From assembly GCA_003605065.1 (NCBI GenBank), contig QZJM01000063.1, positions 12,485-76,484 on the forward strand: a DNA stretch of 64,000 nt, written 5' to 3'. The translations under genes were made by a program, and so were the position numbers. This DNA is from Dethiobacter sp. (GTDB taxonomy: Bacteria; Bacillota; Dethiobacteria; DTU022; UBA8154). Below the pieces are notes generated by a model that saw only the letters and a program-made list of their open reading frames with translations, did no database searches and was not told where the DNA came from. Positions within the stretch are counted from its first letter, which is position 1; every line of letters starts with the position of its first letter. This document shows positions 12,825 through 36,363 of the stretch, piece by piece.

Positions 12825-12845
12825 GGATAGCGTTACGAAGCTTTT

Positions 12846-14468
12846 TTAATTACACTTTAAAGAACGCACAGTTTCATGATGGTTATAGCTCGGAAAAAGA
12901 AGGGGAGAAATGCTTTCTGTTTCTAGCCCGTTTTGCTCCAGTTGACGACGAAACTGGCAAACATGCTCAAGGGTAAGCTTTTTCAACTTTATCTCTTTTG
13001 ATTTCTGGGCGGCATGAAACCCTGCACGTCGACCAAAAACAAGAATGTCAAGCAGCGAATTTCCCATAAGCCTGTTACGACCATGAATTCCTCCGGTATT
13101 TTCTCCGGCGGCATAGAGGTTTTCTATACTTGTACGGCTGTACTTGTCAATTAAGAGACCCCCGTTCTGGTAATGAAGGGTCGGGTAAACCAATATAGGC
13201 TCTTTACGAATATTAATACCAAACCTGGCGAACTGTCTTAACATGGCTGGGAGCTGTCTTTCGATGGTCCCCTCACCATGGAGCAGTTCGATCAGCGGTG
13301 AATCAAGCCAGACACCTGTCGTACCGTCAGGAGTGCTTATACCCTTCTTTTTGTAACTGCATTCCTTAATAATAGCAGCAGATTCCACATCACGGATTTC
13401 CAGATGATAAACAAACTGATCGCCATCAATGTTCAGAGGTGTGGCGCCAAGACCGCGTACTTTTTCCGTCACCAGCAAGCCCATGATCTGGGAAGGAAAA
13501 ACAACGCCAGTGGGGTGGTACTGAATGGTATCCATAAAGGCTAACCTGGCTCCCGCACGATAGCCCATGACCAGCCCATCACCAGTGGCACCATAGTGGT
13601 TGGTAGTGGGGAAACCCTGGAAATGAAGCCTCCCGGAGCCACCCGTAGCAAGGATTACCGTTTTGGCCCGTACAATCAGGTATTCCTCTGTCTCCAGGTT
13701 AAAAAGAACAGAACCGGCTGCTTTACCTTCTTCATCCAGCAAAAGTTCTACTGCAGGGCAAAATTCCAGCACGTTAATTCCCCTGTTAAGAGTTTCGTCT
13801 CTCAGGGTACGCATAATCTCTGTACCGGTATAGTCCCGGGCAGAATGCATCCGTTTTCGCGAGGTGCCGCCACCATGGATGGTGAGCATCGTGCCGTCGT
13901 CTGCTTTATCAAGCATGGCACCCAGATCTTCAAGCCATTTAATAATCATGGGAGCATCGTTAACCAGAGTATAAACAAGCTCTGGTATATTGGTAAAATG
14001 CCCTCCGCCCATGACGTCAAGGTAATGTAGGGCAGGGGAATCATTTTCTTTATCAGCTGCCTGGATGCCTCCTTGGGCCATTATAGTATTGGCATCGCCA
14101 AAACGCAGCTTGGTCACAAGCAAAACTTTTGCGCCTTCCTTTTGAGAGGCTAGAGCCGCCGCTGCGCCTGCCCCCCCACCGCCGATAATGAGGACATCCA
14201 TATCATAAGCGATTTTTTCCAGGTCAATTTCAATATGCTCAATCCTGCTGTGTGCTTCCAGAAGTTCAGCCAGCTCACAGGGAACCCTGTCGCCCTTGTT
14301 CCCCCCCGCCTTTAGCGTCTGGAAGCCATTTTCAAGATAATCGGGATGAAATTTTTTAACTACTTCCCTGCACTCATGGGGAGCCATGCGTGGAAAATCC
14401 TGGTACAGGCGCCTGGGGCGTGTTTTTTCAACTTTTTTGACGAGCTCTTTTAAATACGATATATACAT
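12846..14468 (-). CDS. FAD-binding flavoprotein of the succinate dehydrogenase / fumarate reductase flavoprotein family (soluble type, N-terminal ~80-aa extension)
   Basis: IIGGGGAGAAAA dinucleotide-binding motif. 540 aa. Cotranscribed downstream of the iron-sulfur subunit. Confidence 0.7.
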   Translation of the reverse strand: MYISYLKELVKKVEKTRPRRLYQDFPRMAPHECREVVKKFHPDYLENGFQTLKAGGNKGDRVPCELAELLEAHSRIEHIEIDLEKIAYDMDVLIIGGGGAGAAAALASQKEGAKVLLVTKLRFGDANTIMAQGGIQAADKENDSPALHYLDVMGGGHFTNIPELVYTLVNDAPMIIKWLEDLGAMLDKADDGTMLTIHGGGTSRKRMHSARDYTGTEIMRTLRDETLNRGINVLEFCPAVELLLDEEGKAAGSVLFNLETEEYLIVRAKTVILATGGSGRLHFQGFPTTNHYGATGDGLVMGYRAGARLAFMDTIQYHPTGVVFPSQIMGLLVTEKVRGLGATPLNIDGDQFVYHLEIRDVESAAIIKECSYKKKGISTPDGTTGVWLDSPLIELLHGEGTIERQLPAMLRQFARFGINIRKEPILVYPTLHYQNGGLLIDKYSRTSIENLYAAGENTGGIHGRNRLMGNSLLDILVFGRRAGFHAAQKSKEIKLKKLTLEHVCQFRRQLEQNGLETESISPLLFPSYNHHETVRSLKCN

Positions 14469-14530
14469 AAATTCACCTGCTTTCCAAAAGCCAGGTTCCT
14501 CCTTTTGTTAAGAATAAATTCCTTCCGGCG

Positions 14531-15211
14531 CTATTCTTCTATATCACGGCTATTATAAATAATCCTTAGTTCATCAGAACTTAACTTCATTAATTGCCGC
14601 AATTCCGCCTCATACTTTCCCTCTTTTATCTCCATAACCCTTCGCTTAAGGTGTGAAGCCTGGGGCAAAAGGTGCTTGCTATAAAGGCGGCGGGCTAAAA
14701 TAGTAACGTGATACTGCACAATATGTACCGGGCACCGGGAGGCACAGAGGCCACACATGATGCAGTCAAAAGATTCTGTAGCACACTGTGCAATTTCTCC
14801 CCTCTGGGCATGGGCGATGTAGTGCATGACATTTATGTTCTGCGGGCATACCTTTGTGCAGGAGCCGCACCCTATGCAGCGGTAAATTTCCGGGTAGTAA
14901 AGGGCAATTGAAGAGGCAGTGGGGGTTAAGGTGTTAATGTCATAGGTGCCTTTTAAGGGGGGGGAATATGGAATCTGTGCCAGGAACATGTTAGCCTCAA
15001 CTTTGGTCTGGCAGGCAAGACCAACTTTCAGCTCATAGTTACCGGCGGTGCGGTAAACAATAGCACAAGCACCACAGAATCCTGCCCGGCACCCGCAACC
15101 ACGCTTTAATTGGAATCCGGCATATTCCATGGCATTCATTACTGTTAATGATGCGGGCACTTTATACTTTTTACCCATAATATATATATCAACCAACGGC
15201 ACCTTAGTCAT
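14531..15211 (-). CDS. iron-sulfur subunit (2Fe-2S plus two 4Fe-4S) of an SdhB/FrdB-like oxidoreductase
   Basis: CGCRAGFCGACA, CIGCGSCTKVCP and CIMCGLCASRCP cysteine clusters. Confidence 0.7.
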   Translation of the reverse strand: MTKVPLVDIYIMGKKYKVPASLTVMNAMEYAGFQLKRGCGCRAGFCGACAIVYRTAGNYELKVGLACQTKVEANMFLAQIPYSPPLKGTYDINTLTPTASSIALYYPEIYRCIGCGSCTKVCPQNINVMHYIAHAQRGEIAQCATESFDCIMCGLCASRCPVHIVQYHVTILARRLYSKHLLPQASHLKRRVMEIKEGKYEAELRQLMKLSSDELRIIYNSRDIEE

Positions 15212-16540: not shown

Positions 16541-18481
16541 TTATTCTTTTTCTAATCCTGCTTCACTTAGTTTGCGCCATAATGTTGTTCGCCCGATACC
16601 AAGCTTTTCTGCTAATTTGGTTTTATTTCCTTTTAAACGAAAATACTCTTCTCTAATTAATTGATTCTCAATTTGTTCCATAATTCTTTTTAAATCTCCG
16701 TTTGGCTCAACTTTTAAATAATTATTTTCATTTGTTACTACAGATTCACTGGCAAAATCCAGCAGGATTTTTTTAATGTAACGACCTACGGCTTTAGGGG
16801 TGGAATCCGGTTCTACCAATACCATAAGACGTTTTATAAGGCTTTCCAGTTCCCTTACGTTACCGGGCCAATCATAAGCAGTTAATAACTCATTATATTC
16901 CGTTAGAGACTTTTTCAGCAGGGAAAAAAGATTCTCATCTGTTATTTCTGTCAACAGGTTAAAAGCAAGAGGCAGTATATCTTCTTTCCTCTGGCGTAAA
17001 GGCGGGATAGATAATTTCAGGATATTAAGGCGGTAGTATAGATCACGGCGGAATGTACCCTGCTCTACAGCTTTTAATAAATTGCGGTTAGTAGCAGAAA
17101 TTACCCGAACGTCTATCGGTATTAACCTGTTATCACCTATGCGCATGATTTCTTTTTGCTGTAACACCCTGAGCAGCTTGGACTGAACTTCCGGGGAGAT
17201 CTCACCGATCTCATCCAGAAAAATGGTGCCGCGGTGAGCTAATTCAAACAACCCCTTTTTGCCTCCCTTTTTGGCTCCGGTAAATGCTCCTTCGGCATAA
17301 CCAAATAATTCGCTTTCCAGGAGCGTGGAAGGCAGTGCGGCACAATTTACAGCGACAAAAGGTTGGGATGCCCGAATACTGGCATTATGAATGCTTTGGG
17401 CAAAAAGCTCCTTTCCGGTACCTGTTTCACCGGTAATTAGAACAGTTTCATCAGTATAAGCATATTTTTTGGCCTGGTGCACCGTATCAATGATTTCTTT
17501 GCTTTTGCCTATAATATCCTTAAATTGATAACTGGCCTGAAGTTTACTTTCATGATTGGCCCGGCGAATTTTCTCTTCCATATATTGGATGCGGTTTACT
17601 TCGTGAAAAGCAAAAATAGAGCCTACTATTTGCCCATGATCATAGATAGGAATCTTATTTACGATCAGTTGTTTTTTTCTAAAATTGCATATTTTATCTG
17701 TTTCAATCTCGTTTTGATTAACTACAAAGGGTTGAGGTCTGTCCGTTGTGATTACTTCATGAATAGGCCTGCCGATAGCTGTTGCTGCTTTAAGTTCTAA
17801 AATATTTTCGGCTACGGGGTTAAATACAGTAATGATATTATGGGCATCGACGGCAATAATTCCCTCGAAAGAGTAATCAACAATGGCCTTTAACTTGAAA
17901 GCTTCACGCCGTTCCTTCCGTCTTGCCCAGGCTACCTCTTTAGCGTGGGAATAAGCTCTCATGATGGCATCTTTGCTGATAGAAACGGGGATGCAGGGGC
18001 ATCCCTGGGAGCGGGCCAGTTGGGCAATAACACCCCCGCTGACGATTGCTTTTATATTTCGCTTTTTAACTTCTTTAAGTTTGGTCAGGCCGTCATGTTC
18101 GTTAAAATAAATAAATTGCTCCAGTTTAACATTTATTACTTCTTTTATTTCATGGAAACGCGGGTTGGGATTATGAAATTCAAACAAAGCCAAAGGTTCA
18201 CCAAATAATCTTTTGGCCTTATGCAGGGCGAATACAGTTTCAAAAATGCCTACGGGGATAGCGATTAGGGGAATATCAAATTTTTTTCGCAGGTGCCGGG
18301 TATTACCTTCAGTTGTTATGATTACTTCTACACCCTGCTCCTCAGCCCTGGCTACTGCCGGTTCAGCATTCTCGATAGCTCCTTCTTCCAGTAAAACCTT
18401 TTCAGGAAGATCGGGCAGCACCTCTTGAATAAGCTGGGTAAGTTCGGAGTATGGTGAAAGAAAGCAAACTTCATAATTCAT
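16541..18481 (-). CDS. sigma-54-dependent transcriptional activator (PrpR-type N-terminal domain, PAS, AAA+ sigma-54 activation domain, Fis HTH)
   Basis: GETGTGKE Walker A, GAFTGA loop (GYAEGAFTGA), ESELFGY motif, and a C-terminal HTH (TKLAEKLGIGRTTLWRK). Confidence 0.85.
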   Translation of the reverse strand: MNYEVCFLSPYSELTQLIQEVLPDLPEKVLLEEGAIENAEPAVARAEEQGVEVIITTEGNTRHLRKKFDIPLIAIPVGIFETVFALHKAKRLFGEPLALFEFHNPNPRFHEIKEVINVKLEQFIYFNEHDGLTKLKEVKKRNIKAIVSGGVIAQLARSQGCPCIPVSISKDAIMRAYSHAKEVAWARRKERREAFKLKAIVDYSFEGIIAVDAHNIITVFNPVAENILELKAATAIGRPIHEVITTDRPQPFVVNQNEIETDKICNFRKKQLIVNKIPIYDHGQIVGSIFAFHEVNRIQYMEEKIRRANHESKLQASYQFKDIIGKSKEIIDTVHQAKKYAYTDETVLITGETGTGKELFAQSIHNASIRASQPFVAVNCAALPSTLLESELFGYAEGAFTGAKKGGKKGLFELAHRGTIFLDEIGEISPEVQSKLLRVLQQKEIMRIGDNRLIPIDVRVISATNRNLLKAVEQGTFRRDLYYRLNILKLSIPPLRQRKEDILPLAFNLLTEITDENLFSLLKKSLTEYNELLTAYDWPGNVRELESLIKRLMVLVEPDSTPKAVGRYIKKILLDFASESVVTNENNYLKVEPNGDLKRIMEQIENQLIREEYFRLKGNKTKLAEKLGIGRTTLWRKLSEAGLEKE

Positions 18482-18752: not shown

Positions 18753-18768
18753 TGGCACATCTTTTGCA
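18753..18768 (+). promoter_or_regulatory. sigma-54 (-24/-12) promoter TGGCAC-N5-TTGCA
   Basis: TGGCACATCTTTTGCA exactly matches the consensus. It sits 165 nt upstream of the UbiD-family gene and is divergent from the sigma-54 activator gene. Confidence 0.75.
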
Positions 18769-18932: not shown

Positions 18933-20474
18933 ATGACGAAAGATATAACAAGTTTAAGAACAACAATTGATTTTCTCAAGGAAGAAGAAGGTGAGTTACT
19001 GGTAACCGATGTAGAGATTAATCCAGAACTGGAGATGGCTGCAATTCAGAAAGCCCTGGATAACGGTCCTGCTCTTTTGTTTGAAAACGTTAAGGGCTAT
19101 CCCGGAAAAAGGTTATTTACCAATCTTATGGCCTCGGAAAAACGTATTGCCAAAATCTTCGATGTAGATGAGCCCAAGAATTTTAAACACAAGATCAGAA
19201 ATGCCCTGCACAACCCTATCCCCCCCAGGTTAGTGGAAAAGGCCCCCTGCCAGGAAGTAGTTATTACCAAGGATATTGATGTCTGGCCTGTTGTTCCCAT
19301 GATCTCTCATACCCCCCAGGATCCGGGGCGTACCTTGGGAGGCGGCAATACTCTTATCTGTGGCAAATATTTCTTTGGGGGGCGTCATATCAGCTACAAC
19401 CGCATGAGCTTCGTATGTGGCGGGCCGGATTATTCCAGCTTCCAGATAGCCCCGGGTTCACATACGGATATGGCCGTATCGCAGTTTTATAAAAAAGAAC
19501 ATGTTCCCATGACCATTAACATGGGAGTGCCCCCGGCCTGTACGATCATGGCCGGCGCCGGTTTCAACTATGTAATTCTTAATCCCGGTTGTGACGAAAT
19601 TGCCATTGCCGGGGGAATACAGGGCTCACCGGTCGATCTTGTGAAGGCTAAAACAGTTGATGCCTATTCCATCGCTAATGCCGAAATCGTCCTTGAAGGC
19701 TACGTGGATACAACGCAGAAAGTATGGGAACACCCCGAAGCCGAGAAAGAGAATAAACAGGGCGTTTATCCCTTCCATCCCGAGTGGTCCGGCTACATGG
19801 GCCGCGCTTACCGTACCTACAAATTCCAGGTGACAGCCATTACCCACCGTAAGGAGAACCCCATCTACTATCCGCTGATTGTCCATAGCTACGATGACCA
19901 TCATATTGACTGTAAAGTACGGGAGGCCTCCTTCCTGGAACTGGGAGAAAGAATTTCCCCAGGCTTTGTAAAAGACGTGTATGCTCCGCTGGGCATGACT
20001 GACTGGGGCGGTGCTATCTTCCAGGTTCGCAAGACTAAGAAACGGGATGAGGGCTTCCAGAAAAACCTGCTGTCTGCTGCTCTTTCTGTTTCTCAGGGCA
20101 TGCGTCTGGCCATAGCCGTGGATGAAGATGTAAATATTTACTGTGCCGAAGATGTGCTCTGGGCTCTTACTACAAGAGTCGATGCCGACAAAGATATCCT
20201 GATAGTCAATCCCGGCGGTATGGGTCAAACCTTCCAGCCTGCCGAGCGCAGTGCTGCTGCTCCCGGTGCCCAGTGGGTGCGTTCGGAATCCAAGTATGCC
20301 GGAGGTATTGGCTTGGATGCCACGGTACCATTTGAGTTTCAATGGGCTTATGAACGTGCCAGTTACCCGGTTGAACTGGTAGATCTCAAAAAATGGTTCA
20401 GCGAGAACCAAATCGACAAAGCTAAAAGCTCCATGTGTGAATATGCCCGCTGGCTTGCTGAGGTGGGAATCTAA
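18933..20474 (+). CDS. UbiD-family (prFMN-dependent) decarboxylase
   Basis: 513 aa with UbiD-family architecture over its full length. First gene after the sigma-54 promoter. Confidence 0.85.
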   Translation: MTKDITSLRTTIDFLKEEEGELLVTDVEINPELEMAAIQKALDNGPALLFENVKGYPGKRLFTNLMASEKRIAKIFDVDEPKNFKHKIRNALHNPIPPRLVEKAPCQEVVITKDIDVWPVVPMISHTPQDPGRTLGGGNTLICGKYFFGGRHISYNRMSFVCGGPDYSSFQIAPGSHTDMAVSQFYKKEHVPMTINMGVPPACTIMAGAGFNYVILNPGCDEIAIAGGIQGSPVDLVKAKTVDAYSIANAEIVLEGYVDTTQKVWEHPEAEKENKQGVYPFHPEWSGYMGRAYRTYKFQVTAITHRKENPIYYPLIVHSYDDHHIDCKVREASFLELGERISPGFVKDVYAPLGMTDWGGAIFQVRKTKKRDEGFQKNLLSAALSVSQGMRLAIAVDEDVNIYCAEDVLWALTTRVDADKDILIVNPGGMGQTFQPAERSAAAPGAQWVRSESKYAGGIGLDATVPFEFQWAYERASYPVELVDLKKWFSENQIDKAKSSMCEYARWLAEVGI

Positions 20475-20555
20475 CAACACAAAAGAAAGAGATGAGAGGG
20501 GTGTGCCCCTCCATCTCTCTCTTGCCTTCAAACAATATGGAAAGAGGGCTGCACT

Positions 20556-21818
20556 ATGAGTACGAATATAGAAGAAAAAGGATTGTTAACCTCCTTTCGT
20601 GTGCTTGATTTGTCAAATGAACGGGGATTTTTATGCGGGAAAATACTGGGTGATTTGGGAGCGGATGTCATCAAAATTGAAAAGCCCGGCGGTGATCCTG
20701 CCCGTAATATAGGTCCTTTTTTTGAAGATAAGCCTGATCCCGAGAAAAGCCTGTACTGGTTCGCTTATAACAATAATAAGCGTGGTATTACCCTCAACCT
20801 GGAAACTGAAAGCGGCAGGGATATCTTTTGCCGCCTGGTAAAAACTGCTGATTTTCTCATAGAATCTTTTAGCCCGGGTTACATGGAAAGCCTGGGGCTG
20901 GGCTATGAACGAATAAGCCGGGTTAATCCCCAACTGGTAATGACCTCCATTACACCTTTTGGGCAAACAGGGCCTTACAGCCAGTACAAAGCTTCCGACC
21001 TGGAAATTATGGCTATGAGCGGTTTGATGTCATTATTGGGTTATCCGGACAGGCCGCCTGTACGTGTAACTGTACCCCAGTCCTACATGTGGACCGGAAT
21101 GCAGGCCGCATCCGGCACTTTGCTGGCCCATTATTACCGCGGCCGGACCGGCAAAGGCCAGCATGTGGATGTTTCAGCCCAGGCCAGTATACTCTGCGCC
21201 CTGGCCCATGCTCCTACTTTTTGGGATGTAAACGAGGTGCTTACGGTTCGGGAGGGCCCCATAATGAGCGGGCGCAGCGTTAAAGGTGCCAAGATGCGCT
21301 GTATCTTTCCCTGTAAGGACGGCTTTATTAACTTTATTGTTTATGGCGGCCCGGCAGGGATTACTACTAACAAGGCCCTTACCGAATGGATGGATTCGGA
21401 AGGAATGGCTACGGAATATCTCAAGAATAAAGATTGGGACAGTTTTGATATCGCTACGGTGACGCAGGAAGAAATTGACCAGATCGAAGGGCCCACTGCT
21501 GAATTTTTGAAGACCAAGACCAAGAAGGAGTTTTTTGAAGAGGCCATCAAGAGGCGTATGTTAGGTTATCCTGTTACTACTGCCGAGGAGATTTTAGCAG
21601 ATCCCCAGTTGTATGCCCGTGATTACTGGCAAAAGGTAGCACATCCGGAGCTGGATCAGGAAATCACTTACCCGGGCGGTTTTGGTAAATTTTCTCTTTC
21701 TCCCTGCCGTATTTGGCGCAGGGCGCCCCTTATCGGCGAACATAACGAGGAGATTTACGGAGAATTAGGTTTAAATGGTAATGACCTGCTTATGCTAAAG
21801 CAGGCCGGTATAATTTGA
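20556..21818 (+). CDS. family III CoA-transferase (CaiB/BaiF family) subunit
   Basis: 420 aa. N-terminal VLDLS..GPF..L..LGADVIKIE motif typical of family III. Confidence 0.85.
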   Translation: MSTNIEEKGLLTSFRVLDLSNERGFLCGKILGDLGADVIKIEKPGGDPARNIGPFFEDKPDPEKSLYWFAYNNNKRGITLNLETESGRDIFCRLVKTADFLIESFSPGYMESLGLGYERISRVNPQLVMTSITPFGQTGPYSQYKASDLEIMAMSGLMSLLGYPDRPPVRVTVPQSYMWTGMQAASGTLLAHYYRGRTGKGQHVDVSAQASILCALAHAPTFWDVNEVLTVREGPIMSGRSVKGAKMRCIFPCKDGFINFIVYGGPAGITTNKALTEWMDSEGMATEYLKNKDWDSFDIATVTQEEIDQIEGPTAEFLKTKTKKEFFEEAIKRRMLGYPVTTAEEILADPQLYARDYWQKVAHPELDQEITYPGGFGKFSLSPCRIWRRAPLIGEHNEEIYGELGLNGNDLLMLKQAGII

Positions 21819-21856
21819 TCAGTTGTTAAGAAACAGGCCCCTAGGAGGTAAAAGAG

Positions 21857-23074
21857 ATGAACAAACGGGTATTTGAGGAGATAAAAGTAGCAGAATTTGG
21901 AGGTTTTGCCGCTGGCCCGGGTGTGGGGAAAATGATGGCGGACTTTGGGGCGGAGGTAGTTCGCGTAGAATCGTTTGCACGCCCTGACGGCTTCAGATCC
22001 CATTATCCGCCTTATACGGATAACGAGCCCGGCTTAAACCGTTCCGGTTGTTTTGCCATTCATAACAATAATAAATATGATATAACTTTGAACTTAAAAA
22101 CGGAGGGCGCATTAGAGGCTGCCAAAAAGGTTATCGCCTGGGCTGACGTTGTTATAGAGAACTTTACGCCAGGGACCATGAGCAGGCTGGGTTTGGGATA
22201 TGAAACCCTGTCTAAAGATAAACCTGATTTAATTATGCTCGGCTCATGCAACCAGGGTCAGACCGGGCCCCATGCCGAACACCCGGGTTTCGGCTCACAT
22301 TTGACTTCATTAAGCGGTTTTACCCACCTGACCGGTTACCCCGATGCCCCGCCGGTAATTCTTTATGGCCCTTATATCGATTATATCGGGGTTGGCTATG
22401 GCATGATTGCCATAGCAGCGGCCCTGGATTACCGCCGGCGCACAGGTAAAGGACAATACATTGACCTTGCCCAGTACGAGGGGGGACTGCAATTCGTCGC
22501 CCCGGTTTTACTGGATTATCTTATTAATGGCAGGATTACTTCCCGCATGGGAAATCGCAATCCTTATGCTGCTCCCCACGGGGCGTACCCCTGCCTGGGC
22601 GAAGACCGCTGGTGTGTCATCAGTGTTTTTAGCGACGAGGAGTGGCAGCAGTTGATAAAGACTATGGGTTATCCTCATTGGGCCAAAGAGTCCAGGTTTG
22701 CCACCTTACTGGGGCGTAAAGAAAACGAAGATGAATTAGACAGCCTTATAGGACAGTGGACATCTGGCTTTACTGCGGAGCAGCTCATGGAAAGGTTACA
22801 GGCGGTAGGTGTACGTGCTGCCGTAGTTAATAACATGAAAGATATTTATACTGATCCCCAGTTGAAACATCGTCATATCTGGCGGGAATTGGAACATGTG
22901 GAGATGGGCCGCTTTAACTACCAGGCGCCTGCCTTCAACCTTTCGGAAACGCCGGCCGAAATTGACCGCCCCAGTCCCTGTATAGGTGAACATAACCATT
23001 TCTTTTTTACCCGTATATTGGGGTACTCAGAGGAAGAATATAAGACCATGCTGGAGCAAAAGGTCATTGCCTAA
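21857..23074 (+). CDS. family III CoA-transferase (CaiB/BaiF family) subunit, paralog
   Basis: 405 aa. Second adjacent family III member, suggesting a heteromeric SptAB/BbsEF-type transferase. Confidence 0.85.
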   Translation: MNKRVFEEIKVAEFGGFAAGPGVGKMMADFGAEVVRVESFARPDGFRSHYPPYTDNEPGLNRSGCFAIHNNNKYDITLNLKTEGALEAAKKVIAWADVVIENFTPGTMSRLGLGYETLSKDKPDLIMLGSCNQGQTGPHAEHPGFGSHLTSLSGFTHLTGYPDAPPVILYGPYIDYIGVGYGMIAIAAALDYRRRTGKGQYIDLAQYEGGLQFVAPVLLDYLINGRITSRMGNRNPYAAPHGAYPCLGEDRWCVISVFSDEEWQQLIKTMGYPHWAKESRFATLLGRKENEDELDSLIGQWTSGFTAEQLMERLQAVGVRAAVVNNMKDIYTDPQLKHRHIWRELEHVEMGRFNYQAPAFNLSETPAEIDRPSPCIGEHNHFFFTRILGYSEEEYKTMLEQKVIA

Positions 23075-23106
23075 AGCACAAGTGTAGTACCTGAGGAGGA
23101 AATGAT

Positions 23107-24243
23107 ATGAAGTTATTTGAGTACATGGGTAAGGAAATATTTTCCCGCTACGGTATCCCTGTCCCCAGGGGGAAAGTTGTATCTGATTCCCGGGATGCTG
23201 TAGAAACAGCATCTGAGCTGGGCCAGGTGGTTTTGAAATCACAGGTGCTAAGCGGTAAAAGAGGAAAAGCGGGAGGCATAAAATTTCCGGCGACTTCTGA
23301 AGAAGTTATCACTTTTTCCAGTCAGCTACTCGGGTCCGACCTGCGGGGAGTAAAGGTAGAAAAATTGCTGGTAGAAGAAAAGCTGAATATCCAGCAGGAA
23401 ATCTACCTGGCCTTAACTGTGGACGGTTCACTGCGGGTTCCTGTGATATTGGCATCGTCCCAGGGGGGAATGGATATCGAGGAAGTGCCGGAGGAAAAAA
23501 TTATTAAGCAGCCGGTGAGCTTGAAAACAGGTGTCATGCCCTATATGGGGCGGGAGCTTGCGCGCCGGCTGGGATTTCAAGGTAAAGCCCTTTCACAGTT
23601 TGCTGAAATTGTAGTAAAGCTTTATCGTGTTTTTACGGAAATAGATGCCGAACTCGTAGAGATCAACCCGCTGTTTCTTTGTGACAAAGGTTTTGTCGCC
23701 GGTGATGCCAAGATAACCCTGGATGATGAAGCAGCTTTTCGCCGGCAGGAATTCCCGCGGGTAAAAGAAGGCAGCCCCCTGGAAGAGCGGGCTAAAAGTA
23801 TCGGGCTTTCCTATGTAGAACTCGATGGTGATATCGCTGTTATGGCTAACGGTGCCGGCATTACCATGGCTACACTGGATATGATCCAATATTTTGGCGG
23901 CCAGCCTGCAAATTTCCTTGACGCCGGGGGCGGTGCCAATGTGGAACAGACCTCCAAAGCCCTGGAGATACTCCTGGCCACCAACCCTAAAGTTGTTTTT
24001 ATTAATATTTTTGGCGGTATTACCCGTTGCGATGATGTGGCCAATGCTTTTGTCCAGGTAAAGAATATGCAGGAGATTACTGTTCCGGTAGTCATCCGTA
24101 TGAGCGGCACCAATGAGCAGCAGGGTCTGAAGATACTGGAAGAGAATGGTATTGGGGCCTGCCGCGATATGCAGGAAGCAGCAAAAAAAGCTGTGGAACT
24201 GGTTAAAGGAGGAGACTGTGATGGCTATCTATGTTGCTCATAA
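23107..24243 (+). CDS. succinyl-CoA synthetase beta-like subunit (ADP-forming acyl-CoA ligase, ATP-grasp)
   Basis: MKLFEYMGKEIF..GIPVPRG N-terminus typical of SucC. Confidence 0.8.
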   Translation: MKLFEYMGKEIFSRYGIPVPRGKVVSDSRDAVETASELGQVVLKSQVLSGKRGKAGGIKFPATSEEVITFSSQLLGSDLRGVKVEKLLVEEKLNIQQEIYLALTVDGSLRVPVILASSQGGMDIEEVPEEKIIKQPVSLKTGVMPYMGRELARRLGFQGKALSQFAEIVVKLYRVFTEIDAELVEINPLFLCDKGFVAGDAKITLDDEAAFRRQEFPRVKEGSPLEERAKSIGLSYVELDGDIAVMANGAGITMATLDMIQYFGGQPANFLDAGGGANVEQTSKALEILLATNPKVVFINIFGGITRCDDVANAFVQVKNMQEITVPVVIRMSGTNEQQGLKILEENGIGACRDMQEAAKKAVELVKGGDCDGYLCCS

Positions 24244-25090
24244 TGCGCAGGTAGTGGTGCAGGGAATTACCGGGAACCAGGGAAATTTTCATACACGCCA
24301 GATGCTGGCCTTTGGCACTCAAATTGTGGCCGGGGTTTCTCCGGGAAAAGGCGGTCAGCTGGTTGAAGGGATCCCTGTTTACGATACCGTAGCCGCAGCT
24401 TATGAAAAACACCAAATTGATGCCACAGCCATATATATTCCTGCTCCTTTTGCCCTGGATGCGGTCATGGAAGCGGTGGACGCCGGAGTAAAGGTTGTGG
24501 GCTGTATTACGGAACATATTCCCCTGCATGATGAGATGAAACTGGTGGATTATGCCCGTCAGAAAGGATCGGTCGTAGTAGGGCCAAATACCTTTGGCAT
24601 AGTTACTTCCCGCGGCTGTAAGATTGGTGTCGCCCCCAGCCATGTATTCAGGGATGGCCCCGTGGGCGTAATTTCCCGAAGCGGTACCCTTACCTATGAA
24701 ATTGTCGGCAATATGCTGGCACATGGCATCGGGACCAGTACAGTGGTAGGGCTGGGGGGTGACAGGGTTACAGGGCTTAATTTTGTGGAGGTGTTAAAGG
24801 AATTTTTCCTCGATGATGAAACTAAAGCTATCGTTATGATCGGTGAGATCGGTGGTACGGCGGAAGAGGAAGCGGCAGAATTTATCAAGGCCAACCCTGT
24901 AAAACCTGTCATCTCTTACCTGGCCGGTAAAAGTGCCCCACCCGGTAAGCGTATGGGGCATGCCGGAGCGATCATTGAAAGGGGTAAAGGCACCTTTGAA
25001 AACAAGGTAAACGCTTTAAAGGCAGCAAATGTGCAGGTGGCCGTACTCCCTTTTGAAGTCCTGGATTTAGTAAAAAAGGTGTTAAAATAG
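24221..25090 (+). CDS. succinyl-CoA synthetase alpha-like subunit (CoA-binding)
   Basis: VVQGITGNQG CoA-binding motif and phosphohistidine region (GHAGAII). Overlaps the beta gene end. Confidence 0.8.
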   Translation: MAIYVAHNAQVVVQGITGNQGNFHTRQMLAFGTQIVAGVSPGKGGQLVEGIPVYDTVAAAYEKHQIDATAIYIPAPFALDAVMEAVDAGVKVVGCITEHIPLHDEMKLVDYARQKGSVVVGPNTFGIVTSRGCKIGVAPSHVFRDGPVGVISRSGTLTYEIVGNMLAHGIGTSTVVGLGGDRVTGLNFVEVLKEFFLDDETKAIVMIGEIGGTAEEEAAEFIKANPVKPVISYLAGKSAPPGKRMGHAGAIIERGKGTFENKVNALKAANVQVAVLPFEVLDLVKKVLK

Positions 25091-25752
25091 ACAACCCTGG
25101 TAAGATTTTCCCCCGCGGATTTCGATTTCTTTAAGGTTTTTAATATAAAACATATTGCCATTAGTCAGGACATTTCGACTTCGGTTGTGACACGCACATT
25201 ATAGCTGCTGCAAAGTGCCGGAATAATCGAATATCATTCCTTGGGTCCCAAAGGCAGCATTATCAGGATTACTAATTCATATCTCCTTAACAACCTGGGC
25301 ACCTTTGCTCAGCAAGTATCTACAACACCCCATAAATGAAGAAAGAGTATAAACGTGTAATCATGCATAAAGGAGGCAATTACAATTTCCTTAAAAAATT
25401 TATATTATTGACCTGTTCAAGGGGGTGCATGGATTGACAGAAGATTTACACAAGGTTAATAGAGGAGGGATTAGATGACAGAGTAGCTTGGGAGCGTAAT
25501 TATATAAGCTGAGGCTTTATGTTAGGGAACTTATATAGTTATTAAATTTAATTATAAACATGATGTTCTAGTTAAAGCTTGTAGGCAGAGTAGTACTAAA
25601 GCGAGATTTATATCAATGCCAGAGTTGTGGCCCTCGGAGGAGAAGATTGTTAAATGGCTGGTGAACCTAACACAGGTGTAATGTATTACATGGGCCGGAA
25701 GATGGTTACGTCAGAGGGTTGTAAAACAATAAGATAGGGGGTTGAATAAGGT

Positions 25753-26817
25753 ATGTTGAAATTAGGTAAATTAGCTATTATTGGAGTAACTCTAAGTATT
25801 CTACTTCTAATGGTTACCTCCTGTGGAGGTAACATCACCCAAAATGAACCAGGGTCTAGCGGGCAGGCGGGAAGTATTGATGTGTCTCAAGGTAGCGGAG
25901 AAAAAAGCGGCCCGTGGGAGGTTACTATTCTGGGCGGTTCAGTAGGCGGTGTGTGGGCGGCTATCACCGAAGGGGTGGCTGAGAGCGTGCGGCGTACTGC
26001 ACCGCCCGGTTCCAATATTACGGCTGAACCTGGTAAGGATGGCCCCAACAGTATAATGGTGGCTAAGAAAGAGGCCGAGTTAGCTATTTCTTATTCGCCT
26101 ACAGCATACACAGCATTAAAAGGAATTGATCCCTATCAGGAGGCTTACCCCGGCATTCGGGCGGTGGCCGTTCTAAATCCTAATTCTACGTTTCATTTTT
26201 TGGTTTTAAAGAATACAGGGCTGACTTCTATTGAAGACCTCAAGGCTAAAAAGTATCCACTACGTATTTCGGTTAATAAACAAGGCTCCACTATGGAACT
26301 GGTTTCCAAGGCTGTGCTCAAGGCTTACGGGATAAGTTACCAAGATATTGAAAGTTGGGGCGGCAAGGTCTATTTTCTATCCACTAAGGAGACCATGGAA
26401 GCCATTGATAACGGGCAGGTTCAGGCTCACTCTATTACTGGAGAACACCCAGTTTCACACTTTGTAGAAGCGGCGATGAGGCGAGAATTTGCTCTTTTGC
26501 CAATTAGTTCGGAAGCAATAAATAAGGTCAATCAAGAACTGGGGACCCGTGCGGGGATTATCCCGGGTGGCACCTATTCTTTTGCCCCCGAAGACGTCCC
26601 TACTTGTGCCGCATCCCTGTTACTGGTTACCGGAGCCGAACAGCCAGAAGATTTTATTTATAACATAACCAAGGCCCTGAACGATAACCTGGATTACCTG
26701 CGTACAGTTCATGCTATCTTGAAGGATATAAATCCAAAAACCATGGCAGATACCTCGCCTATTCCACTGCATCCCGGGGCGGAAAAGTACTACAAAGAAA
26801 TTGGAGCCCTGAAATAA
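25753..26817 (+). CDS. TAXI-family TRAP transporter solute-binding lipoprotein
   Basis: Lipoprotein signal ..LLLMVTSC. TAXI-family fold. Adjacent to the fused TRAP permease. Confidence 0.75.
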   Translation: MLKLGKLAIIGVTLSILLLMVTSCGGNITQNEPGSSGQAGSIDVSQGSGEKSGPWEVTILGGSVGGVWAAITEGVAESVRRTAPPGSNITAEPGKDGPNSIMVAKKEAELAISYSPTAYTALKGIDPYQEAYPGIRAVAVLNPNSTFHFLVLKNTGLTSIEDLKAKKYPLRISVNKQGSTMELVSKAVLKAYGISYQDIESWGGKVYFLSTKETMEAIDNGQVQAHSITGEHPVSHFVEAAMRREFALLPISSEAINKVNQELGTRAGIIPGGTYSFAPEDVPTCAASLLLVTGAEQPEDFIYNITKALNDNLDYLRTVHAILKDINPKTMADTSPIPLHPGAEKYYKEIGALK

Positions 26818-26841
26818 CTATTTGTTAAGAAGGTTCGAAAC

Positions 26842-26882
26842 GGGTACCTGCTTTTGGTCTTATATGACAAGAGCAGGTACCC
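26842..26882 (+). other. perfect 11-bp stem-loop (GGGTACCTGCT / AGCAGGTACCC) in the SBP-permease spacer
   Basis: Direct reading of the sequence. No T-run follows, so it is not a classic terminator. Confidence 0.5.
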
Positions 26883-27183
26883 TTGGGGGTGATAATACAT
26901 ACAGGAATGCTTCGCTTGTGAACGTTCAATTCACAGCAAAGTTTATAAAGGACTTGCATCTGAATCTTCTCTTTAAATCTCCTAAAAATTCGAAAAATAT
27001 TCTGGGAACGATCTACCCAAAAACAGCAGTTATTAACCATAATATGTTATTTTTAACGTCAGCGAAATTTAGGTTGCATTTTCAAAGAAAATTGCTTAAA
27101 AATGGAAAATTTGCTAGTCGTTATTTTTAACCTTAAAAATAATTGTTACAGCGCAAATGGCTTTGTAACAAAGGAGGAGCAAC

Positions 27184-29112
27184 ATGTCTAAATTTTTTCA
27201 GGGTGGGGAACGGCGTAAGTTAACGGGGTGGTGGAAGACCTTAGTTACCTTAATCGGAGTTGCCCTGACCTTCTATGGAATTTGGACAGCTCTATTTGTA
27301 AAGCTGGATCCCTGGCTCCACCGTAGTGTTTTTTTAACCTTCATTCTGATTTTAACTTTCATAGTTTATAGTCCTAGTAAGAGTTCCCAGGAAAAAATGG
27401 GCCCGTCATATGTAGATATATTTTTAGCTGTATTGGGTACGGCAGCCGGTGTTTATTTTGTCTTAAACGCTGAGCGGTTTATTACCCGCTGGCCCCAAGT
27501 GGATCCTTTGAGTTTTATGGACGTGTTTTTCGGGTTGGTCGTATTTTTGATGGTTCTCGAGATTACCCGGCGGACAGTAGGTTTTCCGCTCTTAGTAATC
27601 GTATTGATTTTCCTGGTTTATAGTTTTCTCGGCAAGTACCTTCCTGCCGGGTTTTCCCACCGGGGCATGACCATAGTGCGCTTTGTTGACCAGATGATTT
27701 ATACTCTTGATGGGGTTTTCGGTACGCCAATCGGGGTTACTGCCACCATGGTTTATATGTTCGTTCTTTTTGGCGCTATACTAGATAAATCCGGAGGGTC
27801 CGACTTTTTCTTCAAAATGGCCACGGCCCTGGCTGGACGTTCAGTTGGGGGACCGGCTAAGGTTGCCGTAATCTCCAGTGGGTTGTACGGCAGTATCTCT
27901 GGGAGCCCCACTGCCAATGTGGTAACCACCGGGGCCTTTACCATTCCCTTGATGAAAAGGATCGGTTATTCCCCGGTCTTTGCCGGAGCTGTTGAGGCGG
28001 CAGCCTCTACCGGTGGGGGTATTTTGCCACCGGTTATGGGTTCAGCTGCCTTTCTAATGGTTGAGTTTACTGGCATCTCTTATTTGTCCATCATTATTGC
28101 CGCTGCCATTCCCGGTATTTTATATTACATAGGCATACTTTTACAGGTTCATTTCCGGGCCCTCTCTAAGGATATGCGGCCAATGGAAAGGGAGGATATT
28201 GAATCGCCGGTTACGGTACTAAAAAAGAACTGGTACTTTCTCTTGCCATTTATATTATTGGTCTGGCTGCTGGTTGAGGGTTACACGCCCACCTTTGCTG
28301 GAGCAATTGTTAGTTTCGTCACCATTGCTGTCAGCTGGCTGCGCAAGGAAACCAGGATGGGGCTAGACAAGATTATTGAATCCTTTGAAGAGGCGGCCTT
28401 GAGTATAATTGTTGTGGCCAGCGCTTGTGCAGCTGCTGGGCTGGTTATTGGCGGGATCATGTTTACAGGTCTAGGAAACAAAGCCACCAGCTTGATCTTC
28501 CGTGCAGCCGGAGGGTTTAAGCTAGTGGTTATGTTATTTACAGCAATTGTTTGTATACTACTAGGCATGGGAATGCCTGTGCCTTCGGCGTACGTTTTAA
28601 CCGCTGCGATGGCCGGGCCGGTGTTACTGCAGGTGGGCTTACCCTTATTGCAATCACACTTGTTTATTGTTTATTATGCAACATTGTCGGCAATTACACC
28701 TCCGGTTGCCGTAGCTGCCTTCGCTGCATCAGGTCTGGCTAAGGCAAACCCCAACCAAATCGGTTTTCAGGCCATGCGCCTGGCTTTTGTGGGCTTCTTA
28801 ATACCATTTTTTTTCTCTTTTCAGCCAGCTTTGCTATTGGTAGGGAATGTTGGCGAGATTATATTAGCGTCTCTAACGGCTATTGTGGGCGTTATTGCCC
28901 TCGCTGTAGCCATGGAGGGTTGGTTCCGGAAAGGCATATCAGGATGGGGGCGGCTGATCTTGCTGTTTGCGGGTCTCATCCTTATTTACCCCGGTGTGTT
29001 GACTGATTTGATAGGTTTAGTTTTGGTGGTTCTGGTTTTGGGACCCCAGGTGTTGAGTCGGGGGATCCAGAGACCGGTGGTAGCTAGAAGCAATAAAAAT
29101 GGTTCTGTATAA
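27184..29112 (+). CDS. TRAP transporter fused permease (TAXI-associated DctQ/DctM fusion)
   Basis: 642-aa polytopic membrane protein of the fused 4TM/12TM TRAP permease type. Confidence 0.8.
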   Translation: MSKFFQGGERRKLTGWWKTLVTLIGVALTFYGIWTALFVKLDPWLHRSVFLTFILILTFIVYSPSKSSQEKMGPSYVDIFLAVLGTAAGVYFVLNAERFITRWPQVDPLSFMDVFFGLVVFLMVLEITRRTVGFPLLVIVLIFLVYSFLGKYLPAGFSHRGMTIVRFVDQMIYTLDGVFGTPIGVTATMVYMFVLFGAILDKSGGSDFFFKMATALAGRSVGGPAKVAVISSGLYGSISGSPTANVVTTGAFTIPLMKRIGYSPVFAGAVEAAASTGGGILPPVMGSAAFLMVEFTGISYLSIIIAAAIPGILYYIGILLQVHFRALSKDMRPMEREDIESPVTVLKKNWYFLLPFILLVWLLVEGYTPTFAGAIVSFVTIAVSWLRKETRMGLDKIIESFEEAALSIIVVASACAAAGLVIGGIMFTGLGNKATSLIFRAAGGFKLVVMLFTAIVCILLGMGMPVPSAYVLTAAMAGPVLLQVGLPLLQSHLFIVYYATLSAITPPVAVAAFAASGLAKANPNQIGFQAMRLAFVGFLIPFFFSFQPALLLVGNVGEIILASLTAIVGVIALAVAMEGWFRKGISGWGRLILLFAGLILIYPGVLTDLIGLVLVVLVLGPQVLSRGIQRPVVARSNKNGSV

Positions 29113-29372: not shown

Positions 29373-29504
29373 ATGATTTTCAAACGTGGTTTTGGTCAAA
29401 CCATTGGATTCGGGGAGTATCCGGCCCTAATAGCTATTGATATAATGAAAGCGTTTACTGATGAATCTTATCCCCTTGGTACATGCATGGATGTGGAAAT
29501 ATAA
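29373..29504 (+). pseudogene. 5' fragment of an isochorismatase-family hydrolase gene (43 codons)
   Basis: ALIAIDIMKAFTDE resembles the isochorismatase N-terminal motif. The ORF is truncated by a stop. Confidence 0.25.
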
Positions 29505-29680
29505 CAGGTTTGTCGTTTGCTAAAAACAGCAAGAGAAGTATCCATACCTATTTTTTATCCGATCGTTCAATATGATAAACGAGATTATTTGTGCGCAGTC
29601 ACTGAACATGATGAAATTTCCTTTACTGGTATTAACTGTGATAGAATACTGGCAAATACCAGGAAGGGAAATGAAAATCG

Positions 29681-30524
29681 ATGCTTACCGAAAAGAGCCT
29701 TTCCCTGGAAGAAGCTCTGGATTTAACCTTAAAGTGCGCTGAGCAGTCCGGTTACGGGGAGGTGACCAGGAAAGGTTTCCGAGGCAATTTATTTACTTTT
29801 ATGAAGTGGTGCTCAGCACAGAACGTTAGCTGCGTAGGCGATATTAACACAGCGCTTCTAAAGCCATATTTTCTGTATCTGAAAGAAAAGCAGCTATCCG
29901 GCTATACCGTGAAAAGCAGGTGTAATAGCCTGCGCTACCTGTTTGGCTGCCTGGAAGAAAAGGGCATTATTCCCGACAACCCCATGAACTATCTCAAGAT
30001 ATGTCCCCGTCTTGGAGAAAAAGCCTGGGACGTACTTACCCTGGAAGATATGGGCCTCCTTTTGAAGGGAGTAGAAAAGCGCTACCAGGATGCTTCAACG
30101 GAATACAAGCGCTCTACTCTCCGGGACAAGCTCATGTTAGAGATGCTTTTGGCTACAGGTATGCGTTCCTGCGAGATTGCCGCGCTGAAAGTCAAAGATG
30201 TGGACCTGGAAAAAGGTACCGTCCGTATCTAGGGCAAGGGCAGCAACTGGTACATCAAGAGAAACCGCTGTACGCACAATCATTCAAAAAATTGCCCGCT
30301 CTGCCGGTTTGGAAAGAAAGGTTACTCCCCTACTGCGCCACAGCTTCTGCTCCTTTTTGATCAACCGGGGAGCCGATGCTTTCAGCGTCCAGCGGCTCAT
30401 GGGGCACTGGCAGGTCCAGACGACGCTGCGTTTCTACCTGCACCTGACCCCCGAGGAAGTGAAAAAAGACTGGCAAAAGTACAGCCCCTTAGCCGACGGG
30501 AAGATGCCTGCTGTGCTGGTTTAA
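29681..30524 (+). pseudogene. tyrosine recombinase/integrase (XerC/D-like) pseudogene with an in-frame TAG and a frameshift
   Basis: The N-terminal SAM-like domain plus ..VDLEKGTVRI runs in frame 1 until TAG at 30230..30232. The catalytic C-terminus (LLRHSF.., GHWQVQTTLRFYLH with Tyr) runs in frame +2, 30198..30524. Confidence 0.7.
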
Positions 30525-31150
30525 TCGGCAGCGGATGGCAGGCCGGGGCTCAGCTTCTGGCTCTCCTGGCGGTACGGCCTGTTAAAGAAATTAAGGTTTA
30601 CAGCCTGCGAAAAGAAAAACGTGAAGCGTTTGTAGAGGAAATGTGCCTTAAAACAGGGGCTAATATCCGATCTGTAGAAAGCCCCGAGGAATGTGTCCGG
30701 GAAGTAGACATTATTTTAGCTGCCACCTCGTCTCTTGTCCCTGTAATACGCCCGGAATGGTTGTCAGAGGGTGTACATATAAGCTGCATTAAAGCACAGG
30801 AAGTGGATGAAGCAGTTTTAAATACCTGCCAACGAATTGTCGTTCATACCAGGGTCCAACAAAAACAGATAGATAATATTCTTCCGGGCACAAAGTATAT
30901 TCCACAGGAACATGAACAAGGATGGTGGAATAAAGAGAGCCTGTGGGAAAGCCTTCCGGAGCTCTCTGATCTGATTGCCGGGCGTATTGCCGGACGGAAA
31001 AATGAGAAAGAGATTACCTGTTTTGTCAATAATGTCGGGGCAGGCCTGCAATTTGCTGCCCTGGGTGCCTTAATATTGAAAAAAGCCGGGACCCTTGGCT
31101 TGGGCAGGGAACTCCCCGGCGAATGGTTCTCCGAAGATGTACATCCTTAA
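30525..31150 (+). pseudogene. 3' fragment of an ornithine cyclodeaminase / mu-crystallin family gene (N-terminal part missing)
   Basis: Rossmann motif LIGSGWQAGAQL and OCD-like C-terminus. It starts exactly where the integrase C-terminal frame ends, and no upstream N-terminal part exists. Confidence 0.55.
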
Positions 31151-35622: not shown

Positions 35623-36340
35623 TTCTTTGCGGGATCTGGATTTTCATTTCTGTCCCGGCTGCCATCATGGTACTGCCCATCGTTTGATTTGTGAAGCCAT
35701 CGATTACCATGGAATTAAGAAGAAGACCATCGGGATACCGGGGGTAGGGTGTGGTGTTTTTCTGTACAACTACTTTGATCTGGATGTGTGCGAGGCGCCT
35801 CACGGCAGGGCGCCTGCCGTAGCCACGGGGTTTAAAAGGGTTCTTCCGCAAAATATTATCTTTACTTACCAGGGAGATGGGGACCTGGGCTCCATCGGCA
35901 TGTCGGAAATAATCCACACGGCCAACAGGGGTGAAAACATCACCGTTTTTTTTATTAACAACAGCGTTTACGGTATGACCGGAGGGCAGATGGCACCAAC
36001 CACGCTGCCGGGCCAGAAAACAACTACAACTCCCTATGGCAGGGATTTTCGCACAGAAGGTTATCCTATCCGCATGACGGAAATGCTCGCCCCCCTGGAA
36101 GGAGTGGCTTTTGCCGCCAGGGTTTCTCTCCATACACCCTCCCAGGTCAAAAAAGCAAGGAAAGCGGTCTTGAGGGCTTTGGATATACAGTTAAAAAATG
36201 GGGGCTTTTCTTTCGTGGAATTCCTTTGTGCATGCCCGACCAACTGGGGGCTTTCTCCCCGGCAGTGCATCGAAAAGATCGATAAGGAGATGCTTCAAGC
36301 CTTTCCTTTGGGTACCTATAAAGACAGGCAGGGTTCCTGA
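35591..36340 (+). CDS. 2-oxoacid:ferredoxin oxidoreductase beta subunit (TPP-binding)
   Basis: FCPGCHHG motif. Overlaps the alpha gene end by 32 nt. Confidence 0.85.
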   Translation: MALTKVFTRPDSLRDLDFHFCPGCHHGTAHRLICEAIDYHGIKKKTIGIPGVGCGVFLYNYFDLDVCEAPHGRAPAVATGFKRVLPQNIIFTYQGDGDLGSIGMSEIIHTANRGENITVFFINNSVYGMTGGQMAPTTLPGQKTTTTPYGRDFRTEGYPIRMTEMLAPLEGVAFAARVSLHTPSQVKKARKAVLRALDIQLKNGGFSFVEFLCACPTNWGLSPRQCIEKIDKEMLQAFPLGTYKDRQGS

Positions 36341-36363
36341 TCCTTAGGTAAAGAGGTGGAAAA

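Follow-up and report, generated by a model that had tools for sequence, protein, structure and literature searches.

A 64,000-nucleotide stretch of a Dethiobacter sp. metagenome-assembled genome (MAG; contig QZJM01000063.1), referred to here as the window, carries seven supported genes on its plus strand between positions 18933 and 29112 that probably constitute a sigma-54-controlled catabolic operon for a phthalate-type aromatic dicarboxylate. The genes encode a UbiD-family decarboxylase, two family III coenzyme A (CoA)-transferase paralogs, both subunits of a succinate-CoA ligase (SucCD), a TAXI-family solute-binding protein, and a fused TRAP permease, and all seven open reading frames (ORFs) are full length compared to their homologs. 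From this gene content we infer the class of substrate: the operon would mediate uptake of the dicarboxylate, its activation with succinyl-CoA, recycling of succinate by SucCD, and decarboxylation by an enzyme dependent on prenylated flavin mononucleotide (prFMN). A preliminary description of the locus had cautiously suggested phthalate-type CoA transfer and decarboxylation, and this reading held up, as the decarboxylase resembles phthaloyl-CoA decarboxylase (PCD), the transferases match those of BbsEF and of the phthalate cluster of Aromatoleum aromaticum EbN1, and the gene order is that of the EbN1 cluster. For o-phthalate itself as the substrate we see somewhat less than an even chance; the remaining probability within this explanation is shared by isophthalate or terephthalate and by substituted or hetero analogs. 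We regard the locus as a variant form of the anaerobic phthalate module already known, with a decarboxylase from a sister clade, an integrated SucCD, sigma-54 control, and no adjacent ubiX.

A phthaloyl-CoA decarboxylase-like enzyme from a sister clade

The domains UbiD_N, UbiD, and UbiD_C all score above the Pfam cutoffs in the window decarboxylase, which is covered over its full length. Among solved structures, PCD (PDB 8oz5, 8p02, and 8pmk) matches residues 8 to 512 with 493 bits, whereas the next family, the protocatechuate decarboxylases, reaches 166 bits. The protein does not group with enzymes of the UbiD, Fdc1, or VdcC types. It is 47% identical to the PCDs of both Thauera chlorobenzoica and EbN1 and contains both PCD-type signatures, H[IV][SG][YF]NRM.F and [PH]FHPEW[AS]G, which also served as family patterns in our locus scan. 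Based on these similarities, we propose that the enzyme would remove the second carboxyl group from an aryl-dicarboxyl-CoA in a prFMN-dependent reaction.

When one genome per species was scanned, 562 related loci were retrieved, and the best 80 were kept. Clades were assigned from identity tables and a neighbor-joining tree without support values, built without the PCD of Desulfosarcina cetonica and the isophthaloyl-CoA decarboxylase (IPCD) of Syntrophorhabdus aromaticivorans. Tree and identities agree on two sister clades. Clade II contains the Thauera and EbN1 PCDs, and its members are 69 to 78% identical to the Thauera enzyme and 49 to 52% identical to the window protein; clade I contains the window protein, and its members are 59 to 75% identical to it and 47 to 50% identical to PCD. 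Across clade I and the PCD clade, 133 alignment positions are identical, including both signature stretches, and the trees of the CoA-transferases largely follow that of UbiD. The affinity to PCD, away from other UbiD types, was borne out by the structure matches, but the protein falls in a sister clade and not among the characterized PCDs. Given this position, o-phthalate specifically stays only a candidate substrate.

Members of clade I come from Bacillota (L006, L008, and Desulfosporosinus burensis L001), Chloroflexi/Dehalococcoidia, Deltaproteobacteria, and Acidobacteria, as well as from many Rokubacteria/Methylomirabilota MAGs. The triad of one UbiD gene and two CoA-transferase genes is kept in approximately 30 of 65 clade I loci, and an AMP-forming ligase partners the decarboxylase instead of the transferase pair in approximately 20. 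To our knowledge, no clade I enzyme has been assayed or characterized. One tight subclade (>90% identity internally and 63 to 65% to the window protein) includes the proteins of Pelotomaculum isophthalicicum JI and of Syntrophorhabdus bins obtained from reactors for terephthalate wastewater, which points to meta or para isomers as the substrates of that subclade. The subclade of the window protein keeps the residues of true PCDs at Q376, Q388, and G458, positions at which the other clade I members have diverged; this is compatible with a retained ancestral specificity for o-phthalate-like substrates but is not proof of it.

Within the syntroph subclade, the UbiD proteins of P. isophthalicicum JI (Bacillota; L005, 1911 to 3443) and Syntrophorhabdus sp. 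PtaB.Bin047 (Deltaproteobacteria; L013, 4876 to 6405) are 94% identical, which indicates recent transfer between phyla among syntrophs that degrade phthalate isomers. UbiD-family proteins of 470 to 480 amino acids (aa) form a separate group, which we call UbiD2; they share 25 to 28% identity with the window protein and up to 66% with one another. UbiD2 genes lie beside PCD-like genes of both clades, in L089 (4735 to 6249), L003, L009, L017, L086, L087, and approximately 15 other loci, including on EbN1 plasmid 2. L086 carries four UbiD-family paralogs in a row (5973 to 13313) with two Tct transporters, a CoA-transferase pair, a TAXI-TRAP system, cupins, and an OCD-like gene, and looks like a multistep decarboxylation cluster, perhaps for aromatic polycarboxylates. 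Ligases and acyl-CoA dehydrogenases are also encoded near the triad in L003 and L088.

A probable heteromeric CoA-transferase encoded next to succinyl-CoA synthetase

The heteromeric, two-subunit arrangement suggested earlier for the CoA-transferases is supported by one-to-one matches. Subunit A aligns with chain A of BbsEF (PDB 9fn0) at 261 bits and subunit B aligns with chain B at 258 bits, whereas the cross pairs reach 104 to 106. The matches to the phthalate cluster of EbN1 are better still, at 324 bits (47% identity) between subunit A and the first transferase and 412 bits (51% identity) between subunit B and the second. The two adjacent CoA_transf_3 paralogs are thus each orthologous to a different subunit of known pairs. 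Asp175 is invariant in all 40 subunit B orthologs surveyed, and subunit A has no acidic residue in the aligned column, which suggests one catalytic and one structural subunit; subunit B, carrying Asp175, is probably the catalytic one. Asp175 is a candidate counterpart of the family III catalytic aspartate, Asp169 of Frc/CaiB. Assignments as aliphatic CoA-transferases (for mesaconate, glutarate, or oxalate) were rejected, as the NCBIfam scores of 175 to 214 bits fall below the cutoffs of 500 to 750.

Both subunits of the ligase exceed the equivalog cutoffs of their models, with 415.5 bits for SucC (NF001913; cutoff, 370) and 386.9 bits for SucD (NF004230; cutoff, 336). SucCD also adjoins the triad elsewhere, in five loci spread over two phyla, namely, L001 and L008 in the Bacillota and L054, L058, and L062 in the Deltaproteobacteria. 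This recurrent linkage is the main support for regeneration of succinyl-CoA by SucCD. Succinyl-CoA would then be the CoA donor, with SucCD recycling the released succinate.

Taken together, these functions suggest the following route. A lipoprotein TAXI binding protein and the fused TRAP permease would import the dianion, and the heteromeric CoA-transferase would move CoA from succinyl-CoA to one of its carboxyl groups. SucCD would turn the released succinate back into succinyl-CoA at the cost of one ATP, and the PCD-like, prFMN-dependent enzyme would strip the second carboxyl group to give an aryl-CoA; from a phthalate isomer, this product would be benzoyl-CoA. The divergently encoded PrpR_N-PAS activator would turn the operon on from its -24/-12 promoter.

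Transporter, promoter, and operon structure

The TAXI protein and the fused permease are well above their family cutoffs (TIGR02122, 196 bits versus 84; TIGR02123, 647 bits versus 321), and the N terminus of the TAXI protein (...LLLMVTSCGG) resembles a lipoprotein signal. The TAXI protein shares 38 to 43% identity with its counterparts in L008 and the Syntrophorhabdus loci, and the permease is 43% identical to that of EbN1. Among solved structures, no close ligand-bound relative of the TAXI protein was found, the nearest TAXI structures scoring at most 97 bits. The TAXI-TRAP system may import the aromatic dicarboxylate.

The sigma-54 element reads TGGCACATCTTTTGCA and lies 165 nt 5' of the UbiD start codon. 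The window contains two exact -24/-12 matches, compared with 0.06 expected. The GG-N10-GC element is intergenic, and the gene for an enhancer-binding protein is adjacent. A metagenomic relative (L090) has an activator ortholog of 54% identity in the same divergent position. Its orthologous operon, of which the UbiD protein is 75% and the CoA-transferases are 71% identical to those of the window, is preceded by an element that is just as exact, TGGCACGACTCTTGCA. Since L090 keeps both the divergent activator and the exact element, sigma-54 control is conserved and not a chance match. The inverted repeat (Table 1) is situated approximately 90 nt 5' of the -24 element, between the activator gene and the promoter, and is a candidate upstream activator-binding site; its half-site words TTCTAT and GAAACATA are also present in the L090 intergenic region. 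The second exact match in the window (TGGCAC-N5-TTGCT, 9725 to 9740) is inside the ornithine carbamoyltransferase gene (argF) of an arg operon, upstream of argG, and could be a chance occurrence or an internal promoter.

The boundaries of the run had been placed correctly before, from the ATG of the UbiD gene at 18933 to the stop codon of the permease at 29112, and the domain assignments (UbiD, two family III CoA-transferases, SucCD, TAXI, and fused TRAP) all hold in Pfam, with further support from NCBIfam for SucCD, TAXI, and fused TRAP. The count of nine genes in the preliminary description was too high, as we find seven supported genes and one 102-aa ORF that we judged nongenic. The latter (26822 to 27130) was not counted because it has no Pfam or NCBIfam match and no tblastn match in 89 related loci. 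An exact sigma-54 element is present at 18753 to 18768, but that it drives all the genes is unproven, as the 662-nt spacer splits sucD from the TAXI gene. The spacer contains no ORF longer than 33 aa, no Rfam match, no terminator-like site, and no hit in a promoter scan and shows no similarity to related loci by blastx or blastn. It may hold a second promoter; a possible sigma-54 site within it was rejected by eye because the GG/GC spacing is wrong. The transporter genes may be cotranscribed with the enzyme genes.

Table 1. Features of the operon and of the DNA around it (positions are those of the window)
Feature	Position	Strand	Basis or remark
Soluble fumarate reductase-like flavoprotein (TfrA-like, 540 aa) and Fe-S subunit (226 aa)	12846..15211	-	Possible accessory operon
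Sigma-54-dependent activator: PrpR_N, PAS, AAA+ sigma-54 interaction domain, HTH_8	16541..18481	-	Pfam; divergent from operon
Perfect 11-bp inverted repeat, TTCTATGTTTC-N6-GAAACATAGAA	18640..18667		Unique in window, 0 expected
Sigma-54 -24/-12 promoter element, TGGCAC-N5-TTGCA	18753..18768	+	Exact match
UbiD-family PCD-like (prFMN-type) decarboxylase, 513 aa, clade I	18933..20474	+	Pfam, PDB matches, tree
Family III CoA-transferase subunit A, 420 aa	20556..21818	+	CoA_transf_3; best PDB match, 9fn0 chain A
Family III CoA-transferase subunit B, 405 aa	21857..23074	+	CoA_transf_3; best PDB match, 9fn0 chain B
SucC, ADP-forming succinate-CoA ligase beta subunit	23107..24243	+	ATP-grasp_2 and Ligase_CoA; NF001913
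SucD, succinate-CoA ligase alpha subunit	24221..25090	+	CoA_binding and Ligase_CoA; NF004230; 23-nt overlap with sucC
Untranslated spacer between enzyme and transporter genes, 662 nt	25091..25752		ORF, Rfam, and terminator scans
TAXI-family TRAP solute-binding protein	25753..26817	+	NMT1_3; TIGR02122
ORF with TTG start, 102 aa, probably not a gene	26822..27130	+	No family match
Fused TRAP (DctQM-type) permease, 642 aa	27184..29112	+	DctM; TIGR02123
Gene debris directly downstream of operon	29373..31147	+	Fragments, similarity

Comparison with known decarboxylation systems

The cluster on plasmid 2 of EbN1 reads UbiX-UbiD-CoAT-CoAT-(IS5)-TAXI-fused TRAP (CoAT, CoA-transferase). Its transferase, decarboxylase, and TAXI-TRAP system are experimentally supported as the o-phthalate system of denitrifiers, as reviewed in 2026 (PMC13040137, sections 13 and 14). 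The window contains the same families in the order UbiD-CoAT-CoAT-TAXI-TRAP, and every component is homologous over its full length, with identities of 30 to 51% (47% for PCD, 47% and 51% for the transferases, 43% for the permease, and 30% for the TAXI protein). It differs in the insertion of SucCD between transferases and transporter and in having no adjacent ubiX, which is present in all known o-phthalate clusters (PMC13040137). Compared with the clusters of denitrifiers, the window operon is under sigma-54/PrpR_N-type control, and its host is a strictly anaerobic-type member of the Bacillota instead of a denitrifying proteobacterium. According to the same review, denitrifiers use a CoA-transferase and obligate anaerobes a ligase, and the characterized succinyl-CoA:phthalate transferases accept only the ortho isomer. 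At the level of single enzymes, the decarboxylase shares its signature motifs with the EbN1 and T. chlorobenzoica PCDs but belongs to the sister clade. BbsEF, the succinyl-CoA:(R)-benzylsuccinate CoA-transferase, is likewise a heteromer of two paralogous family III subunits; however, its similarity is lower than that of the phthalate-cluster transferases, and no other bbs genes (beta-oxidation of benzylsuccinate) are near the window pair.

In S. aromaticivorans UI, isophthalate:CoA ligase and IPCD (PMC9516798) follow the same two-step logic, in which the acid is first activated with CoA and a UbiD-type enzyme then decarboxylates it to benzoyl-CoA, but activation is by a PaaK-like ligase; this IPCD may belong to the UbiD2 paralog group. 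The ligase-type clusters of P. isophthalicicum JI and Syntrophorhabdus share with the window a clade I UbiD protein (63 to 65% identity) and a TAXI protein with fused TRAP permease. They differ in having an AMP-forming CoA ligase in place of the CoA-transferase pair and SucCD, a GntR-type regulator, and an adjacent ubiX. Their UbiD proteins are candidate iso- or terephthaloyl-CoA decarboxylases.

The oxalate system of Oxalobacter formigenes offers a more distant analogy. It consists of the family III CoA-transferase Frc and a thiamine diphosphate-dependent oxalyl-CoA decarboxylase, with the product acyl-CoA serving as the CoA donor. Both systems couple a family III CoA-transferase to decarboxylation of a dicarboxyl-CoA, but the Oxalobacter decarboxylase is unrelated and there is no SucCD. 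A conceivable but doubtful variant of the proposed route is an Oxalobacter-like cycle in which the aryl-CoA product donates the CoA and the monocarboxylate is set free; SucCD would then do no more than prime the reaction.

Alternative substrates and activity in the host

Several observations weigh against a simple o-phthalate pathway. The decarboxylase lies outside the clade of the characterized PCDs (47% identity to the Thauera PCD versus 69 to 78% for clade II), 20 alignment positions are fixed differently between clades I and II, and one clade I subclade is that of an isophthalate degrader and of syntrophs from terephthalate reactors. Window residues of interest among the clade-specific positions include W118, G132, D179, T260, T261, Y312, F363, K369 (Arg in the clade I consensus), and A472, in addition to Q376 and Q388. 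The TAXI protein is merely 30% identical to that of the EbN1 phthalate cluster. As remarked earlier for this DNA, no ubiX was found in the 64-kb window (tblastn with three UbiX queries; best E value, 0.5). No benzoyl-CoA reductase or ring-hydrolase family was detected in the window, and none was detected by Pfam among 107 neighboring ORFs of 17 related loci, a census that returned Tct transporters, cupins, enoyl-CoA hydratases, and riboflavin-synthesis genes. The DNA just downstream of the operon is decayed, and the accessory genes of related loci, including those in the window's own subclade (NadC, OCD-like, and xanthine dehydrogenase-family genes and extra UbiD paralogs), do not fit a simple phthalate route.

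Some of these points would fit the same mechanism acting on isophthalate or terephthalate, that is, a hitherto undescribed CoA-transferase route for a meta or para isomer. The window UbiD protein is a clade I and not an o-phthalate PCD clade member, and the subclade at 63 to 65% identity stands beside an AMP-forming ligase in P. isophthalicicum JI and with ligase, TAXI-TRAP, and UbiX in the Syntrophorhabdus bins from terephthalate-wastewater reactors. The window TAXI protein is also nearer to those of the syntrophs (39 to 43%) than to that of EbN1 (30%), and no anaerobic terephthalate pathway has been elucidated (PMC13040137, section 13). We nevertheless regard isophthalate or terephthalate as unlikely, as the syntroph subclade is derived (T331, P356, V376, and I388) whereas the window subclade keeps the E, T, Q, and Q of PCD, the characterized succinyl-CoA:phthalate transferases take only the ortho isomer (PMC13040137), and clade I is without any assayed member. 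Also unlikely, in our view, is a substituted or heteroaromatic substrate for the same mechanism, such as a pyridine dicarboxylate (for example, quinolinate), a hydroxyphthalate, or a benzene tricarboxylate that other decarboxylases have already trimmed. This idea draws on the neighbors of related triads. In D. burensis, genes for a bona fide NadC (quinolinate phosphoribosyltransferase; 334 bits versus a cutoff of 198) and Tct transporters come after the triad. OCD/mu-crystallin-family genes of the imine reductase type occur in L008 and L086 and as a truncated remnant in the window (30443 to 31147), L003 and L088 have xanthine dehydrogenase-family molybdenum enzymes on the flanks of the triad, and L086 combines four UbiD paralogs with two Tct systems and TAXI-TRAP. 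The deep divergence of clade I (59 to 75% identity within, 47 to 50% to PCD) over soil and groundwater phyla would also fit a natural rather than an industrial substrate. However, NadC occurs in only one of 89 loci, itself present in two copies, none of the accessory genes is intact in the window, and the xanthine dehydrogenase family is not specific to N-heterocycles, since it includes 4-hydroxybenzoyl-CoA reductase.

A broader conjecture, which we consider doubtful but deserving of mention, is that clade I, including the window operon, is the missing anaerobic route for another dicarboxylate, either CoA-transferase-activated terephthalate or isophthalate or a natural N-heteroaromatic or polycarboxylated acid. 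If so, the xenobiotic o-phthalate pathway of denitrifiers would have branched off recently from an ancient and widely distributed module for natural products. That the operon is a remnant of horizontal transfer without function in its Dethiobacter host is highly improbable. The window lacks ubiX, which is adjacent to the UbiD gene in L008, EbN1, and at least ten other loci; a frameshifted integrase, the truncated OCD-like gene, and other fragments follow immediately downstream; and the 662-nt spacer inside the operon is unexplained. Yet all seven genes and the activator gene are intact and the promoter is exact, and ubiX is often elsewhere in the genome, with D. burensis L001 and L090 also having none within the sequence seen. 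In L008, the closest syntenic relative, ubiX lies between sucD and ubiD. A working phthalate-type operon in Dethiobacter would have its prFMN supplied by a ubiX elsewhere in the genome.

Flavin genes appear near several related loci. In D. burensis L001, a CTP-dependent riboflavin kinase (6523 to 6933) and the bona fide nadC (14274 to 15161) flank the cluster, and genes for riboflavin synthesis (GTP cyclohydrolase II and DHBP synthase) recur near other clade I loci, possibly tied to flavin or prFMN supply.

Implications for anaerobic phthalate degradation

Phthalate isomers are high-volume pollutants, and their anaerobic breakdown is established for only a few Proteobacteria (PMC13040137). The window operon and its approximately 65 relatives represent a second, deeply diverged lineage of decarboxylase and CoA-transferase in strictly anaerobic and soil phyla, often with its own succinyl-CoA synthetase, and with this lineage, more organisms come into view as possible anaerobic degraders of such acids. 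The spread of clade I argues for a natural substrate, an old origin, and a module that predates industrial phthalates. A large uncharacterized PCD-like clade in obligate anaerobes and soil phyla is more notable than its single instance in Dethiobacter, for which a catabolic trait is plausible but unproven. The preliminary description had singled out such an island in a pyrrolysine-encoding Firmicute; the window does encode pyrrolysine (see below), but related modules also occur in D. burensis and several Bacillota MAGs.

Neighboring DNA and other features of the window

The debris downstream of the operon contains short isochorismatase-like fragments (recognized by eye), a tyrosine recombinase gene split over three frames (29681 to 30524), and the last 240 codons of a 5'-truncated OCD/mu-crystallin-family gene (30443 to 31147). 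The OCD fragment is 55% identical to residues 120 to 359 of an intact OCD-like gene inside the L008 cluster. An integration event probably broke up a local cluster that had once been larger. The downstream decay and probable integration, together with the patchy taxonomic spread, support the word "island." The G+C content of the locus is not distinctive, and at its borders we found direct repeats only as short, AT-rich pairs at chance level and no tRNA.

Upstream of the operon, beyond the activator gene, a sigma-54-like site with one mismatch (TGGTACAAATATTGC, 15367 to 15353, minus strand) lies approximately 140 nt upstream of the TfrAB-like operon, and the same activator might control both operons. 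Similar genes adjoin the triad components elsewhere, as L090 has a fumarate reductase/SdhA-like (FrdA-like) gene directly after the second CoA-transferase gene and in L003 a FAD_binding_2 and Fer4 pair adjoins the UbiD genes; for this reason, the TfrAB-like enzyme may belong to the system. A role such as supplying succinate is speculative.

Pyrrolysine encoding is apparent at 51007 to 61823, where we found candidates for pylS (class II aminoacyl-tRNA synthetase-like) and pylB (radical SAM), PylD, a PylC-like ligase, and a tRNA-Pyl (CUA) at 55209 to 55280. The monomethylamine methyltransferase gene mtmB appears as two ORFs (56034 to 56651 and 56709 to 57422) across an in-frame stop codon, and corrinoid proteins and RACo-type activases are encoded within the same region. 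Between the operon and this region, at 34537 to 41410, the genes for a three-subunit 2-oxoacid:ferredoxin oxidoreductase precede a pair of MoeA genes, of which one carries a fused periplasmic-binding-like domain, and a molybdopterin gene of the MogA/MoaB type.

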